A stretch of DNA of 64,000 bases from Candidatus Omnitrophota bacterium. Its GTDB lineage: Bacteria > Omnitrophota > Gorgyraeia > Pluralincolimonadales > Pluralincolimonadaceae. Each line of letters begins with the position of its first letter. The first letter of the stretch is position 1. A program made the translations under genes and the position numbers. The DNA is taken from assembly GCA_028716565.1 (NCBI GenBank), contig JAQUPL010000003.1, positions 66,029-130,028 on the forward strand. Reading direction: 5' to 3'. This document shows positions 2,983 through 27,885 of this stretch, piece by piece. The notes under the pieces were generated by a model. It had not been told where the DNA came from, did no database searches, and was given only the letters and a program-made list of their open reading frames with translations.

Positions 2983-3072
2983 GGAGAGGTGTGAGAGCGG
3001 TTGAATCAGCACGCTTGGAAGGCGTGTAGGTCCGTAAGGGCCTCCAGGGTTCAAATCCCTGCCTCTCCGCCA
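2983..3072 (+). tRNA. tRNA-Ser(GGA)
   Basis: Folds by hand: acceptor GGAGAGG/CCTCTCC, anticodon stem CACGC/GCGTG, loop TTGGAAG (anticodon GGA), long variable arm, T-arm CAGGG-TTCAAAT-CCCTG, encoded CCA. Confidence 0.85.
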
Positions 3073-21971: not shown

Positions 21972-22901
21972 ATGGCAAACTTAAAAGAACTTAATAAGAG
22001 AAAAGAGCTACTCTCCGGCGGGCACAGGATGTGTGCGGGCTGCGCATCTCCCATAATCGTAAGGCAGATGGGCCTGTCACAGGAGATGCCGTTAGTTGTG
22101 GGAAGCGCTACGGGCTGCCTCGAAGTCTCGACGACGCCGAATCCTTTTACGGCATGGAACTCGAGCTTTGTGCATTGCGCTTTCGAAAATTCCGCCGCCA
22201 CCGTTTCAGGAGCTGAAGCGGCATACAGGTCGTTAAGGCGCCGCGGCAAGGTAAAGGAAGAGATGAGGTTTGTCGCGCTCGGCGGCGACGGCGGCACGTA
22301 TGATATCGGACTGCAGTCGCTTTCGGGCATGCTTGAGCGCGGCCAAAGGATCTTGTATCTTTGCTACAATAACGAAGCTTATATGAATACAGGCGTCCAA
22401 CGTTCAAGCGCCACGCCTATGGGAACCCAGACGACAACAGCGCCGGTCGGCAAGCAATCCATCGGGAAAAAACAGTTCCCGAAGGACTTGACAGGCATAG
22501 CGGTAGCGCATAGAATACCCTTTGTCGCGACGGCGAGCCCCAGCCACTGGAACGACCTTATAACAAAGTCGCAGAAGGCGCTTTCGGTAGACGGGCCCGC
22601 TTTCATGAACGTCATATCGCCGTGCCCGTTAGGGTGGGCTTATCCGTCGGATAAGACGATAGAGATAGCGAAACTCGCGGTCGATACATGCTTCTGGCCG
22701 CTCTACGAGGTTGAGAACGGCAATGCCTGGAAGCTGAGCTATAAGCCGGCCGCCAAGAAGCCGATCACGGATTACCTCAAAGCGCAGGGCCGTTTCCGCC
22801 ACCTGTTAAGGCCGGAGAACGCTTCTGTGGTCGAGGAGATCCAGAAGAGGATAGACGACGATTGGGCCGCGCTGTTGAAACGCTGCGGCGCTGAGGCATA
22901 A
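21972..22901 (+). CDS. porB: 2-oxoacid:ferredoxin oxidoreductase beta subunit (TPP-binding)
   Basis: Cys motif near the N-terminus (CAGCASP...) and the TPP-binding GDG-x-TYDIG region. Confidence 0.8.
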   Translation: MANLKELNKRKELLSGGHRMCAGCASPIIVRQMGLSQEMPLVVGSATGCLEVSTTPNPFTAWNSSFVHCAFENSAATVSGAEAAYRSLRRRGKVKEEMRFVALGGDGGTYDIGLQSLSGMLERGQRILYLCYNNEAYMNTGVQRSSATPMGTQTTTAPVGKQSIGKKQFPKDLTGIAVAHRIPFVATASPSHWNDLITKSQKALSVDGPAFMNVISPCPLGWAYPSDKTIEIAKLAVDTCFWPLYEVENGNAWKLSYKPAAKKPITDYLKAQGRFRHLLRPENASVVEEIQKRIDDDWAALLKRCGAEA

Positions 22902-22925
22902 TATAGAGCAGCACCGTTCTTTGTG

Positions 22926-22942
22926 AAATATCCGCTCCCCTG
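22926..22942 (+). repeat. direct repeat copy 1 (AAATATCCGCTCCCCTG) = duplicated upstream/5' end of tRNA-Asn
   Basis: Identical 17-mer recurs at 23286-23302, where it forms the tRNA-Asn 5' end; a second shared block TAGCTCAGTTGG sits at 23020-23031. Confidence 0.7.
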
Positions 22943-23044
22943 CCCCGAATGTAGTGTTTCGTGGTAGAATATCTTCGGGGTGCCGAAGCGAGAACATCTA
23001 TGAGCTACTTCATTCGGCATAGCTCAGTTGGGATCATTGGAAAT

Positions 23045-23305
23045 ATGCATTATGTTTACATATTAAAAAGTAACAGCTCTGGAAGATATTATATTGGTGA
23101 AACAAGTAATATCGATAGAAGATTATCAGAGCACAAAGAGAAGAAGAGTAGTTTTGGTAAAAGAAATTGCGATTTAGTTCTTGTCTATAGCAGAGAATTT
23201 CACAACAGGACAGAAGCTCGTAAGTTTGAGAATTTCCTGAAACGGCAAAAGAGCCGGACGTTCATTGAAAGATTAGTTTCAAATAAAATATCCGCTCCCC
23301 TGTAG
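23045..23305 (+). CDS. small GIY-YIG nuclease family protein (COG2827-like)
   Basis: YVYILKSNSSGRYYIGETSNIDRRLSEHKEK...RTEARKFENFLKRQK is a GIY-YIG core; the last 7 codons and the stop are encoded by the tRNA-Asn 5' sequence. Confidence 0.6.
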   Translation: MHYVYILKSNSSGRYYIGETSNIDRRLSEHKEKKSSFGKRNCDLVLVYSREFHNRTEARKFENFLKRQKSRTFIERLVSNKISAPL

Positions 23306-23604
23306 CTCAGTTGGTAGAGCAGTGGACTGTGCAAGGCGCAGCTTCTACAGGAAACTGTAGTTGAAAAAGCAGGAGAATTGTCCGCAGCGTAGTATTAGCT
23401 GACGGAGCGCCGCAGATGTGGCGTCTGGAAGCCCCTCTGGGGTAATCAGCAGCCGAGCCCTTTAGAAATAAAGGGAAGGTTCAGAGACTATGCACCTGCC
23501 TCCTAAACGTAAAGCCGTAGGAGATGATATAGTCCAAGTCCGGTAGCAATACCGGGTCACTTGTAATCCACGTGTCCCTGGTTCGAGTCCAGGCGGGGGA
23601 GCCA
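23296..23604 (+). tRNA. tRNA-Asn(GUU) interrupted by a 233-nt intron-like insertion in the anticodon loop
   Basis: 5' exon 23296-23330 is TCCCCTG-TA-GCTC-AGTTGGTA-GAGC-A-GTGGA-CTGT. 3' exon 23564-23604 is TAA-TCCAC-GTGTC-CCTGG-TTCGAGT-CCAGG-CGGGGGA-G-CCA. The joined exons closely resemble canonical bacterial tRNA-Asn. Confidence 0.6.
23331..23563 (+). ncRNA. putative group I intron within tRNA-Asn
   Basis: Insertion after a U of the anticodon loop and ending in G; possible P1 pairing exon CUGU with intron GCAG (U-G at the splice site); no ORF inside. Confidence 0.5.
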
Positions 23605-23613
23605 GTTTGAAGA

Positions 23614-23649
23614 CCCTCTGCAATTAAACATTGCGGAGGGTTTTTGTTT
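23614..23649 (+). terminator. Rho-independent terminator after tRNA-Asn
   Basis: CCCTCTGCAA-loop-TTGCGGAGGG followed by TTTTTGTTT. Confidence 0.55.
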
Positions 23650-23725
23650 ATTAGGCGCGATTTTAGAGTAGAAATGATATAATAGTAAAAAGTGAAGTCG
23701 TTTTTTGTTTATAGGGAGAGAAGCA

Positions 23726-24271
23726 ATGAATCAGCAGACAAGAAGAATAGATTATGCTTGGGCTAGATTTTGGGCGAGATTCATAGACTACTTTCTTTTC
23801 GTTTTCATATTAATTGGGATATTTTATTTTATTAATGATTCTATCTATGGTTTTCCAAGCACTAAACCAGGATTTAGATTTGCAGAGCTATTCGTATGGG
23901 TTTTTATAGAATCTCTCTTGCTTTCGACGTGGGGCGCTACGCCTGGCAAATGGCTCTTAAATATAACCGTCAGAGATTCAAATGGACAAAAACTTAGATA
24001 TTTAGCTGCATTAAAAAGAAGTTTAAAGGTTTGGATAATTGGGCTTCTAACGGGATTTAGCTTTCCACTCAGTTTTTTAGCAATGTTTTTTAACAATCAA
24101 GCGATTAGCAATAAGGGAGTTACAATTTGGGATCGTGAGGGGCAATTTGTGATCTTGCATAGAAAGTTTAGCCCATTTAAGTTTTTCCTGGTAGCCGTAT
24201 TTATAGTTATAGCCGTTTTAATTTATTTGTTTCTGTTTCTTTGTGACAATTGGTCAATGAGGATTACATAG
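23726..24271 (+). CDS. RDD family membrane protein
   Basis: N-terminal R...AxxxD pattern (RFWARFIDYF) and multiple TM helices; strong RBS AGGGAGAG; AT-rich gene. Confidence 0.5.
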   Translation: MNQQTRRIDYAWARFWARFIDYFLFVFILIGIFYFINDSIYGFPSTKPGFRFAELFVWVFIESLLLSTWGATPGKWLLNITVRDSNGQKLRYLAALKRSLKVWIIGLLTGFSFPLSFLAMFFNNQAISNKGVTIWDREGQFVILHRKFSPFKFFLVAVFIVIAVLIYLFLFLCDNWSMRIT

Positions 24272-24330
24272 CTTCATCAGAGTGTAACCAGTTGCGAAAT
24301 TCGTCCAACACAGGGAGCCATCTTTGAAGA

Positions 24331-24360
24331 AAAACCCATCCATTAAGGATGGGTTTTTTA
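24331..24360 (+). terminator. Rho-independent terminator
   Basis: ACCCATCC-ATTAA-GGATGGGT followed by TTTTTT. Confidence 0.55.
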
Positions 24361-24520
24361 TTGTCGAGCCCCCGCTTTCGCAGAGAAGCTGCAGTTAACC
24401 ATTGAAACTCGGCAATCCAAAGCGTATAATTTAAGCCAGTAAAGTGCCCCCTTTTAGGACGGCACTAAAATGGTATAAAGTTTATGATCGGAAATCAATA
24501 AGGGGCAAGTTTAAACAAAC

Positions 24521-25888
24521 ATGAAAAGCGATTTTAAATCCCAGATCCTGAAAGAAATCGAAGACTGGCAAAAAGAAGGTTTGATTTCGGCTGAACAAGA
24601 AAAAAATTTAACTTCAAGATATAGCCTTCCGGAAATAGCGTCGGAAAAATCCGCTTTGGCGAAGATCATTACTTTTTTGTCTATTTTCGGTTCAATTTTA
24701 GTGGGGATAGGGGTAATTTTATTTTTTGCTTCAAACTGGCGGGGGATTTCCAAGCCGGTAAAATTATTACTGATCTTATCAAGTATTTTTGCAGCTTATT
24801 CAATAGGTTACACCTTAAGCTACATCAGGGAAACTTATTCAAAAACCGGAAAAGCGATTATTTTATTAGGCTCGATCCTTTTCGGGTCCGGGATATACTT
24901 AGTGGCCCAGATCTATCATTTTCCGGCCAATTATCCCGCCGGCGTGTTATTTTGGTCCTTGGGCATATTGCCGCTCGCCTATATCTTAAGATTAAACCCG
25001 ATTTTATTTTTGAGCAGTATTTTATTGATACTGTGGAATATTTTACGTTTAACGGGACTAGATCAACCGAATTATTTTTACCTGATATTTCTTGGTTTAA
25101 TTTTCTATCTTACTTATAAAGCAAAGTCCAGCCGCATAATCTTTACCAACCTCGTGGGTTTTATAATTTGGTTGATGTCTTACCTTTATTTTTGGAATCG
25201 CGGATTTGATACACATGCCAGCGTTGTAGTGCTTCTAAATCTTGGAATTTTATTTTATATTTTAGGCAGAGTCCATGAAACAAATCTTAACCTAGGCAGG
25301 CTTAAATATTCTTATAAGTTCTTAGGGATCGCTCTTATGTTTTTCAATACTTACCTTCTGACGTATGATAATGTTTATGAGGCCCATTACTCGATTCTTG
25401 GCCGTGAGTTCCCTGGAATTATGGTCGTCAATTTTGCCATCGTAAGTTTAACTTTCACGGTCTTAGCGGTATTTTCTTTTAAGAACTGGGGAAAAAATAA
25501 AATCGTCCGTTATGAATCCTGCGCCCTTTTGATCGTTATATTACTAAGCATGACGACTTTAATCTTTCCCGAAGCCTCGATGAGACACAATCATTACAGA
25601 AGCGAGGAATTTTTATTCTATCCTTTTATCTTTAATCTTGTTTTATTATTAGAAATAATCGGGGTGATCGTATTGGGTTATTTGTTTAAAGAAATCAGTT
25701 TAGTAAATTTAGGCATTTTATTTTTTGTTATTCAAATATTAACACTCTATTTTAGCGTTTTTTGGAAATTGATGCCGCGGTCGCTATTCTTTATTTGCGG
25801 AGGTTTAATCCTTTTATTGGGCGGCGGCTATTTAGAAAAGAAACGGAAAGATATCATTATTAAGATTAAATCCGGAGAAGCATCATAA
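24521..25888 (+). CDS. DUF2157/DUF4401-like polytopic membrane protein
   Basis: Soluble N-terminus LKEIEDWQKEGLISAEQ followed by ~12 TM helices; AT-rich; immediately followed by a GDYXXLXY-type gene, the usual partner. Confidence 0.5.
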   Translation: MKSDFKSQILKEIEDWQKEGLISAEQEKNLTSRYSLPEIASEKSALAKIITFLSIFGSILVGIGVILFFASNWRGISKPVKLLLILSSIFAAYSIGYTLSYIRETYSKTGKAIILLGSILFGSGIYLVAQIYHFPANYPAGVLFWSLGILPLAYILRLNPILFLSSILLILWNILRLTGLDQPNYFYLIFLGLIFYLTYKAKSSRIIFTNLVGFIIWLMSYLYFWNRGFDTHASVVVLLNLGILFYILGRVHETNLNLGRLKYSYKFLGIALMFFNTYLLTYDNVYEAHYSILGREFPGIMVVNFAIVSLTFTVLAVFSFKNWGKNKIVRYESCALLIVILLSMTTLIFPEASMRHNHYRSEEFLFYPFIFNLVLLLEIIGVIVLGYLFKEISLVNLGILFFVIQILTLYFSVFWKLMPRSLFFICGGLILLLGGGYLEKKRKDIIIKIKSGEAS

Positions 25889-26638
25889 ATGAGCCAGAAA
25901 CTTAAATTCTATATTGTTGTTGCTATGCAGATCAGTTTTATTCTAGGAATGGTTATTTTCCATCAGTTAACAATAGTATCAGGCCAAAAAATATTTTTAA
26001 AGGCTACCCCTGTAGATCCTCTGGACTTATTTCGCGGATATTATGCGCATATTAATTATGATATCTCCAGGGTTTTAATAAGCCAGATAAATATAGATAG
26101 GGAAGATCTTAGGAACGGGGAATATATTTATGCTATTTTAACTAAAAACCCGGAAGAGAAATTTTACAAAGTTAGCGCTATAAGTCATAAGAAACCTTCG
26201 CTAAAAGCAAGTGAAGTCATTGTGAGGGGCAGGATCCAATATTTTCATAATAAAACCACAAGCAAGATTTGGATGCAAACAGAAGAAGGAAAAGTAAGGG
26301 AACGCGAGGAACCATGGAAGTCATACCTTAGACCCGGTGATGAGGTAGTGATCTTTTTAGCTGAAGACGGACAAATTAGATATGTTTCCCGCAAAGAAAA
26401 AAATTTTGTACCTCCTAAGAACCAGAAAGTCGAATACGGTAAAGTAATAAGAATCGAAGAAAAGAAAGACATGGAGTTAAATATTAAATACGGTATTGAA
26501 AGTTATTTTGCCGAAGAAACAAAAACGTTGGAAATCTCGCGGGCACGAAGAGAAGCAGATCTTTATGCGGAGATTTCCTTGAGTAAAGAAGGCCGCGCCT
26601 TGATCAGTCGCATTTTCTTAAACGGCGAACCCCTCTAA
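25889..26638 (+). CDS. GDYXXLXY-like domain protein
   Basis: N-terminal TM anchor, then PVDPLDLFRGYYAHINY resembling the DP-x-DLFRGDYxxLxY signature; ATGA-coupled to the upstream membrane protein. Confidence 0.45.
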   Translation: MSQKLKFYIVVAMQISFILGMVIFHQLTIVSGQKIFLKATPVDPLDLFRGYYAHINYDISRVLISQINIDREDLRNGEYIYAILTKNPEEKFYKVSAISHKKPSLKASEVIVRGRIQYFHNKTTSKIWMQTEEGKVREREEPWKSYLRPGDEVVIFLAEDGQIRYVSRKEKNFVPPKNQKVEYGKVIRIEEKKDMELNIKYGIESYFAEETKTLEISRARREADLYAEISLSKEGRALISRIFLNGEPL

Positions 26639-26682
26639 ATATTGTGCGTCAATGGTTATCGTCTAAACAGAAAGGACCAGCC

Positions 26683-27255
26683 ATGGCAAAGAAAGTACTA
26701 TTTTTCGTATTATTGGTAATGTTGTTAATGCCGCAATTAGCGAAGGCCGAAGGAGAGAAACCTATCCAGATAGCGGTATTCGACCCTATCCAGCTCGTCC
26801 CGGAGGATGAGTCGATAAAAGGCCTGAGCCTTAGCCTTATCTATGGCGCCAACCAGGATGTCGGCGGCATAAGCCTCGGCCTCATCAACCGCACCAAAGG
26901 GCGCGGTGTCGGCCTGCAGTGGGGCGCCGCGAATATCACGGAAGGCGATTTCAGCGGAGTGCAGTTGGGTTTTGTGAACTGGGATGAAGGATTTATGCAC
27001 GGCCTCCAGTACGGGTTCCTGAACGTTTCGAAAGGCCAGTCCGCAGGAATGGAGCTGGGTATGGTTAATTATAACGAAGGATCGTTCAAGGGCCTCCAGT
27101 TCGGCGGATTTAATTATGCCAAAGAAATGCACGGCCTCCAGTTCGGATTTGTCAATTATACGAAATCCCTCGACGGCCTCCAGATAGGCCTCGCCAACTA
27201 CAACGGCAATAAGAAGCCGATGGAGTTTATGGTCCTTGTCAACTGGTCCTTCTGA
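26683..27255 (+). CDS. secreted protein with ~9 tandem 15-aa G-[LV]-Q-x-G-x-x-N-[YW] repeats
   Basis: Signal peptide MAKKVLFFVLLVMLLMPQLAKA; repeats GLQWGAANITEGDFS / GVQLGFVNWDEGFMH / GLQYGFLNVSKGQSA / GLQFGGFNYAKEMH / GLQFGFVNYTKSLD / GLQIGLANYNGNK. Confidence 0.5.
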   Translation: MAKKVLFFVLLVMLLMPQLAKAEGEKPIQIAVFDPIQLVPEDESIKGLSLSLIYGANQDVGGISLGLINRTKGRGVGLQWGAANITEGDFSGVQLGFVNWDEGFMHGLQYGFLNVSKGQSAGMELGMVNYNEGSFKGLQFGGFNYAKEMHGLQFGFVNYTKSLDGLQIGLANYNGNKKPMEFMVLVNWSF

Positions 27256-27264
27256 CACGCGGTT

Positions 27265-27885
27265 ATGTGGTATATTTATATATTGAAGTGCAGGGGAGGG
27301 ACTTTATACACGGGCATGACCAAAGATCCGGAACGCCGCTTCAAAGAACATCTGAGCGGGAAAAGCCGTTACACCAGCTACAACCGGCCCGTATGTTTAG
27401 TATATAAAGAGGAATATCCGACCAGGTCCGCGGCGGCGAAACGCGAGGTCGAGATCAAGACCTGGCCGCGCAAGAGGAAGCTCGCGCTCATTAATAAGGA
27501 TAAGGATCTCAAGGAGGCAGGGATGAAAAAAATAATGGCAGCGGCCGCGATATTATGCCTCACGGCGAGTTGTTTCGCGGTAACCCCTTCCCAGCAAAAA
27601 ATGGAACGTGAAGCTTTGGTGGGAGATGATCAGTCGGCAGGGCTTTCCGGGGAAGAGGCGCCCCTCGTGACATTGGCCGGTGAAATAGTCTCGATCAAGA
27701 GGTCGCTCAATAAGATCACGGTCAAGGACCAGAATACGAGCACCGAGAAGGAATTTACCGTAAAGTCTGAAGATATCAAGTCGTTCAAGCTCGGAGATAC
27801 TGTCGAGGTCAAATACAGGCCCGGCTCAGGCGTTGCCGAGAGTATTACGGCCGCGAAACCCTTGCAGCCGTTACCGGCGTACTAA
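27265..27885 (+). CDS. GIY-YIG nuclease domain (27265-27522) in frame with a downstream lipoprotein module (27523-27885)
   Basis: YIYILKCRGGTLYTGMTKDPERRFKEHL...RSAAAKREVEIKTWPRK is a GIY-YIG core with no stop codon before MKKIMAAAAILCLTASC (lipobox); the lipoprotein has its own AAGGAGG RBS and ATG at 27523. Confidence 0.45.
   Translation: MWYIYILKCRGGTLYTGMTKDPERRFKEHLSGKSRYTSYNRPVCLVYKEEYPTRSAAAKREVEIKTWPRKRKLALINKDKDLKEAGMKKIMAAAAILCLTASCFAVTPSQQKMEREALVGDDQSAGLSGEEAPLVTLAGEIVSIKRSLNKITVKDQNTSTEKEFTVKSEDIKSFKLGDTVEVKYRPGSGVAESITAAKPLQPLPAY

Follow-up and report, generated by a model that had tools for sequence, protein, structure and literature searches.

The classical IC3 introns interrupt tRNA-Leu(UAA) at 34/35, tRNA-fMet at 33/34, and tRNA-Ile(CAU) and tRNA-Arg(CCU) at 36/37. 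The combination of Rfam, ARAGORN and exon scoring used in Williams 2020 (bioRxiv 10.1101/2020.01.27.920355) raised the number of intron-bearing bacterial tRNA settings from 4 to 21, and the setting of the locus described here is among the 17 that were added; in Williams numbering, as cited in PMC13011429, it is Asn.4Ug, denoting anticodon-loop position 4, a U before the site and a G at omega. In that preprint the new settings are represented by counts alone; for Omnitrophota neither a structure nor an endonuclease is described, and nothing is said at phylum level. Introns between positions 35 and 36 of tRNA-Asn were subsequently described by Nakagawa et al. 2026 (mSystems, PMC13011429), who observed precise splicing in vitro, demonstrated GTP-dependent self-splicing for related tRNA-Asn and tRNA-Asp 35/36 introns and found that mutation of omega-G to C stopped exon ligation. 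Their survey of 4,934 complete genomes yielded 28 introns at 35/36 (Patescibacteria 19, Cyanobacteriota 3, Nitrospirota 3 and three other phyla 1 each), 25 of which were typed as IA. HNH genes were present in four Patescibacteria tRNA-Asn introns, HEG-bearing 35/36 introns being found only in that phylum, and the sole entry for Omnitrophota in their Table S5 (PMC13011429) is a tRNA-fMet intron. A literature search pairing Omnitrophota with group I introns or tRNA introns found nothing pertinent.

The DNA analysed here, referred to as the window, is a 64-kb stretch from a Candidatus Omnitrophota genome, and it very probably contains a functional tRNA-Asn(GUU) gene in which a compact group I intron with no ORF separates U35 from U36. 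It had originally been suggested that tRNA-Asn was a novel host for such an intron and that a split after position 35 was unusual, but the host had already been reported (Williams 2020, as Asn.4Ug; Nakagawa et al. 2026) and 35/36 tRNA-Asn introns have been published and experimentally validated (PMC13011429). With the tRNA host and the insertion site both established in this way, the window intron adds no new kind. What is modestly new is that the Asn 35/36 intron is widespread in Omnitrophota, that its core is compact and has no P7.1, that HNH-bearing copies exist outside the Patescibacteria, and that copies differ in having or lacking a twin-hairpin module in P4.

The interrupted gene and its intron

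With introns allowed (ARAGORN -i) a 76-nt tRNA-Asn(gtt) was called at 23296-23604 with the annotation 'Intron Insertion Position(35-36)' and the borders actgt-intron-taatc. Its coordinates and its acceptor, D, anticodon and T arms are the same as those of the original prediction, in which tRNA-Asn(GUU) was split by the 233 nt of 23331-23563. An identical canonical cloverleaf, ending in an encoded CCA, results when 23296-23330 is joined manually to 23564-23604, ARAGORN reads the anticodon GUU from the spliced as well as the unspliced sequence, and the spliced tRNA is 84.2% identical to the annotated E. coli tRNA-Asn across all 76 nt. Only the 35/36 boundary provides an anticodon loop of 7 nt together with U-1 and omega-G, and U23330 and G23563 lie at this one workable position, as was anticipated from an exon ending in U and an insert ending in G. 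Default ARAGORN, with introns off, made no tRNA call at 23296-23604 and called only tRNA-Ser, tRNA-Arg and tRNA-Ser in the whole 64-kb window. One of its calls, tRNA-Ser(gga) at 2983-3072, is yet unlisted by the Rfam tRNA model at the gathering threshold. The features of the locus are collected in Table 1.

Table 1. Coordinates in the window of the tRNA-Asn gene, its intron and adjoining features
Feature	Position	Strand	Details
GIY-YIG ORF	23045-23305	+	86 aa from ATG; Pfam 59 bits; GC 0.345 vs genome ~0.52
tRNA-Asn(GUU) 5' exon	23296-23330	+	35 nt, positions 1-35; ends ...CUGU; U35 = intron U-1; ARAGORN -i
Group I intron	23331-23563	+	233 nt, ORF-free; GCAAGG at start, CACTTG at end; omega-G 23563
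P1	23327-23341	+	exon CUGU + intron GC (23327-23332) with guide GCGCAG (23336-23341); 3-nt loop AAG
P2 hairpin	23345-23360	+	CUACAG-GAAA-CUGUAG, GAAA cap
P3 5' strand	23369-23375	+	GCAGGAG, partner CACCUGC 23493-23499; fits P3 brackets of the Rfam alignment
P4-P5 domain	23379-23451	+	aligns with RF00028 P4/P5 consensus
Twin-hairpin insertion	23381-23424	+	44 nt; splits P4 5' strand between its base pairs 2 and 3
P6 and P6a	23452-23480	+	P6 GCC/GGU; P6a CCCUUUA-GAAA-UAAAGGG
P7 with enclosed P3 3' strand and P8	23484-23535	+	P3 3' strand 23493-23499; P8 23500-23523
P9 and P9a	23536-23562	+	P9 AAGU/ACUU; P9a CCGGUA-GCAA-UACCGG; directly 5' of omega-G
tRNA-Asn 3' exon	23564-23604	+	U36 to encoded CCA; discriminator G; reads TAATCCAC...GCCA
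Intrinsic-terminator-like hairpin and T-run	23608-23646	+	starts 4 nt past CCA end

The assignment of the insert to group I, originally put forward on its end nucleotides and guide, is supported by the covariance model RF00028, which matches 23320-23556 on the + strand over its full length (1-253) with 52.5 bits (E 1.8e-10), a score that is just 2.5 bits above the gathering score of 50 bits. The 309-nt precursor has a fold z-score of -3.83 and none of 100 shuffles was equally stable; its minimum free energy (MFE) fold returns the four tRNA arms together with P1, P2, P5, P6/P6a, P8 and P9, and both stems of the twin hairpin at 23381-23424. The GCAG thought to pair with exon CUGU through a U-G pair in P1 is found at intron nt 8-11, the helix being lengthened by GC/GC, and both a direct reading and, independently, the MFE fold place the U23330•G23338 wobble at the 5' splice site. 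P4 is formed by UG (23379-80) and CUGG (23425-28) paired with UCAGCA (23446-51), the P5 hairpin occupies 23431-23443, and J4/5 and J5/4 are both AA. P7, presumed to be the guanosine-binding helix, can form between G-A-GACUA (23484-23490) and UAGUC-C (23530-23535) in agreement with the Rfam consensus, and it is invariant among the relatives because it was fixed by the pattern used to find them. Downstream of the gene, a single terminator-like site was found in 22700-23800 against a shuffle mean of 0.9, a count that is not above expectation, and it is the position of the site after the CCA, not the count, that is suggestive.

The closest match is with the tRNA-Asn 35/36 introns of Nakagawa et al., with which the window intron shares the host tRNA, the site, U-1 and omega-G, and a GCAG guide paired with CUGU; some of those introns also have HNH-type ORFs, and tRNA finders likewise miss the gene or label it Thr. 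In a MAFFT alignment with the Nitrospira introns and the validated Saccharimonadia intron (Table S5 of that study) the guide, J3/4, P4, J6/7-P7 and J8/7 all align, and the blocks common to the window and published introns are GCAGC, GAAUU, GGAAGCC, GGUAAUC, GGAAGGUUCAGAGACUA and GAUAGUCC. However, the Saccharimonadia and Nitrospira introns (those of Nitrospira being labelled IA1) have a P7.1-type hairpin of ~12-30 nt between P7 and P3', which the window intron and its Omnitrophota relatives do not. Only UG separates P7 (…GACUA) from P3' (CACCUGC) in the window, and the extra P7.1/P7.2 that is the trait of subgroup IA is lacking. The window intron differs from the Nakagawa set further in its twin-hairpin insertion in P4 and in its host phylum. 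In some respects it is like the IC3 tRNA introns, which are also ORF-less, ~200-250 nt long and located in the anticodon loop, form P1 with anticodon-loop nucleotides, pass straight from P7 to P3' and have a short P8 and GNRA-type loops ending P2 and P9, but those introns occupy other tRNAs and other sites, whereas the sequence affinity of the window intron is with the tRNA-Asn family.

Relatives of the intron and the conservation of its structure

The core pattern TTCARAGACTA-N-GATATAGTC-N-GTAAYC was scanned over 185,579 species, one genome each, and yielded 55 loci (designated here by L and a number). Omnitrophota or Omnitrophica appears in the titles of 41 of the 55 and 'uncultured Planctomycetia' or 'Planctomycetales' in nine, the remainder being one each from Saccharibacteria, Peregrinibacteria, Desulfocicer, 'Deltaproteobacteria' and 'bacterium'. 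For these loci ARAGORN -i reported ghost exons and assigned the tRNAs variously to Asn, Thr, Pro and Asp, an artefact noted both by Nakagawa et al. (PMC13011429) and in Williams 2020 (bioRxiv 10.1101/2020.01.27.920355). The relatives were mapped instead by CTGT and omega-G together with anticodon-stem pairing at no fewer than four of the five pairs; a cut-off of 5/5 missed most loci because a mismatch, A27·C43, is conserved in the family. Of 52 loci in which the 5' exon could be mapped, 51 yield tRNA-Asn(GUU) on excision at U-1 and omega-G, so that 51 other species-level genomes, mostly of Candidatus Omnitrophota, share the intron, its tRNA host and its site. The terminal G is kept in all 53 family members, the window included. 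The mismatch atop the anticodon stem (AGUGG…CCACC) is present in 22 of 29 aligned tRNA-Asn genes (e.g. L033, L020 and L038), while pair 27-43 is a normal G-C in the window's clade. The 3' CCA is unencoded in L010, L013, L017, L019, L032, L036, L040, L048 and L052, where the gene ends in …GGGGGAGTTA, GTAA, GCTT or similar; the window and most other loci do encode it.

The gene immediately upstream in the window encodes PorB, and an identical protein is found on MAG contigs of GCA_028714115.1 and GCA_028711645.1. PorB is 94-95% identical in L053 and L021, which come from MAGs titled Candidatus Omnitrophota and so place the window in that phylum, and 90% identical in L014, a locus titled Planctomycetia/Planctomycetales; tRNA-Asn lies ~40-60 nt past porB in all three, and its 5' exon is identical or near-identical to that of the window.

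Covariation was assessed on an alignment of 29 sequences (A1), the structure having been drawn on the window sequence and then projected. Standard pairs occupy 94.1% of the 1706 cells, compared to 28-50% when the partners are slid by 1-3 columns, compensatory changes on both sides occur at 36 of the 59 pairs, and none of 500 shuffles matched any of the five measures. Individual helices of these 29 sequences behave differently. P2 is paired in 100% of cells with compensatory changes at all six pairs, P3 is 97.7% paired with double changes at two pairs, and P4-P5 is 98.7-100% paired and mainly invariant; P6 is invariant, with compensatory changes at 7/7 pairs of P6a, and such changes are found at five of six pairs in P8 and at nine of ten in P9/P9a (97-99% paired). 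P7 and J8/7, being fixed by the scan pattern, carry no covariation information. The P3-P9 core that the original prediction called for is present and covarying, apart from this constraint on P7 itself. P1 was counted apart from A1, in which its two exon-proximal nucleotides were split off, and the P4 insertion, also misplaced in A1, was folded for each sequence individually. Exon CUGU and guide GCAG are retained in 53 of 53 sequences, the window included, and the first intron-internal pair of P1 in 51 of the 53, as G-C, C-G or A-U.

Standard tRNA finders and the gene calls of the MAG itself miss the gene, so that tRNA-Asn would be scored absent in completeness estimates for Omnitrophota genomes. 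Omnitrophota are added as a second phylum of bacteria that are very small, often depend on a host and commonly have tRNA-Asn interrupted at 35/36.

Proposed splicing of the precursor and alternative readings

The structure, taken together with experiments on related but non-identical introns, leads us to infer that the window intron is self-splicing. By the established group I pathway, transcription of the precursor would run to the putative terminator at 23608-23646 and the intron would fold into P1-P9. An external guanosine held in P7 would then attack the phosphodiester after U23330, marked by the U•G wobble of P1. G23563 would next enter that guanosine site, and the bond following it would be attacked by the 3'-OH released on U35. 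The joining of ...CUGU to UAAUCC... would produce a 76-nt tRNA with its CCA encoded and a junction region reading ...GGACUGUUAAUCCAC....

Many group I introns require proteins in vivo. The locus could accordingly hold a true group I intron whose compact core would not self-splice alone and whose removal in the cell depends on a protein cofactor, either a maturase or a chaperone, and the pared-down core, which lacks P7.1/P7.2 and in which P5 is very short, fits such a dependence. However, no candidate maturase is encoded within or next to the intron, and the neighbouring GIY-YIG ORF is missing from sister genomes that retain the intron, so we regard a requirement of this kind as very unlikely.

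It is also very improbable that the locus is a relic, in which the intron is splicing-dead, the gene is a pseudogene and an intact tRNA-Asn is present elsewhere in the genome. The loss of the endonuclease ORF from the window copy, the extra 44 nt within P4 and the low-GC foreign DNA on both flanks of the gene are what might be expected of decay, but all core helices are intact, both exons are canonical and there is a terminator-like hairpin past the CCA. Differences from the HEG-bearing sister copies consist of clean insertions or deletions and a few compensated substitutions, and the P4 insertion is also found, with compensatory changes, in L014, L021 and about nine others. The original prediction had itself named a separate intact tRNA-Asn as the mark of a pseudogene, and no uninterrupted tRNA-Asn was found in the 64-kb window (default ARAGORN) or in the flanks of the 55 related loci. 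The interrupted genes of Patescibacteria are the sole tRNA-Asn copies of their genomes (PMC13011429), and the gene at 23296-23604 is probably also the only copy in its genome.

That the gene is instead tRNA-Thr(UGU) with its intron at 33/34, the boundary often picked for this family by ARAGORN and tFind, given as Thr(tgt) i(34,...) by ARAGORN -i in many relatives and recognised as an ambiguity in Nakagawa et al. (PMC13011429), can practically be dismissed, since the intron would then end in U (…CACU|UGUAAUCC) with no omega-G and the splice site would fall at a U-A pair, not at a U•G wobble, while in the window ARAGORN calls Asn and the tRNA body, 84% identical to E. coli tRNA-Asn, has discriminator G.

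Putative endonuclease genes, the twin hairpin and flanking DNA

The functional, intron-interrupted tRNA-Asn gene favoured here belongs to a family with a bimodal distribution of intron lengths, 189-389 nt and 526-618 nt. A sense-strand ORF of ~105-120 aa is present in 21 of the 22 long introns, that is in 21 of 51 relatives (~40%), and its carriers are nearly all labelled Omnitrophota or Planctomycetia, whereas the HEG-bearing 35/36 introns of PMC13011429 are from Patescibacteria only. The ORFs have the invariant motifs CxxCGY...FHH...N-CH-RE-H. All 14 of the ORFs sampled were matched by Pfam HNH over the full profile, with scores that in no case reached gathering (best E 7e-4); a profile search of the PDB had as its best results the HNH enzyme McrA (E 0.002) and, at E 0.05, a group II maturase, and a search of NCBIfam gave nothing relevant for the relatives' intron ORF. 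These similarities hint that the ORF may encode an HNH homing endonuclease.

The closest relatives with complete loci are L014 (3882-4483) and L021 (6026-6627), whose introns align with that of the window base for base and differ by a few substitutions and by a block of 351 nt in the P1 loop. The HNH-like ORF in this block has a Shine-Dalgarno sequence of its own, and its C-terminus is translated through P1', P2 and P3. Another close relative, L053, has neither the 351-nt block nor the 44-nt twin hairpin of 23381-23424. Judged by these comparisons, the window copy is the endonuclease-free state of what appears to be a mobile homing intron, as in the usual cycle of gain and loss. Being endonuclease-free, it would no longer be able to home by itself and would be inherited with the gene.

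About 12 of the 53 introns have a twin-hairpin module of 42-88 nt inserted at an identical point, namely the window intron and L003, L008, L012, L014, L021, L023, L027, L029, L034, L045 and L051, and the copies in L014 and L021 show compensatory changes relative to that of the window. An insertion of 44 nt within the 5' strand of P4 is unusual and could in principle impair folding, but we take the twin hairpin to be an optional peripheral module, which might for instance act as a tertiary brace. The clean presence or absence of both the HNH ORF and the twin hairpin provides a natural series for study of the cycle of intron and endonuclease gain and loss.

It has been proposed that the family spread from or into Patescibacteria, and both its prevalence in Omnitrophota and the endonuclease-bearing copies outside Patescibacteria bear on this published idea. 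The HNH-like protein of L009, a Saccharibacteria locus, is 57% identical to that of L014, a likeness which suggests that the intron may have been exchanged between Patescibacteria and Omnitrophota.

The stretch between porB and the tRNA is 395 nt in the window and holds the GIY-YIG ORF, which is missing from the gene calls of the source contig and whose stop codon TAG coincides with tRNA positions 8-10, inside the acceptor/D region. No GIY-YIG ORF is present at this place in the syntenic L053, L021 and L014. In two other lineages, L018 (7373-7732, - strand) and L044 (530-844, - strand), a GIY-YIG ORF with only ~30% identity to that of the window is found immediately upstream of the interrupted tRNA-Asn and on its strand. 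The DNA examined contains five GIY-YIG ORFs in total, three of which adjoin an interrupted tRNA-Asn; all three of these introns are HEG-less, and no GIY-YIG ORF was found alongside an HNH-bearing intron in that DNA. The ORF might specify a free-standing nuclease, either engaged in 'collaborative homing' with the endonuclease-less intron or targeting the 5' flank of tRNA-Asn, although this seems improbable.

Immediately past the terminator-like site of the tRNA there is a low-GC block of ~3 kb (23705-26638, GC 0.35-0.37) with genes for RDD, DUF2157 and GDYXXLXY proteins. L021 and L014 lack it, their next shared gene (the homologue of 26644-27255) being nearer the tRNA, and the block looks like an acquired islet adjacent to the tRNA. 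A reading of the intron as belonging to the low-GC DNA around it was considered and rejected, since the porB-tRNA-Asn synteny and the intron are common to relatives without those insertions. A second GIY-YIG protein is encoded at 27265-27885 (+ strand), its N-terminal 72 aa being fused to a C-terminal region of ~130 aa with a hydrophobic segment, and this protein is of normal GC and is conserved at 3469-4079 in L021 with 57-72% identity.
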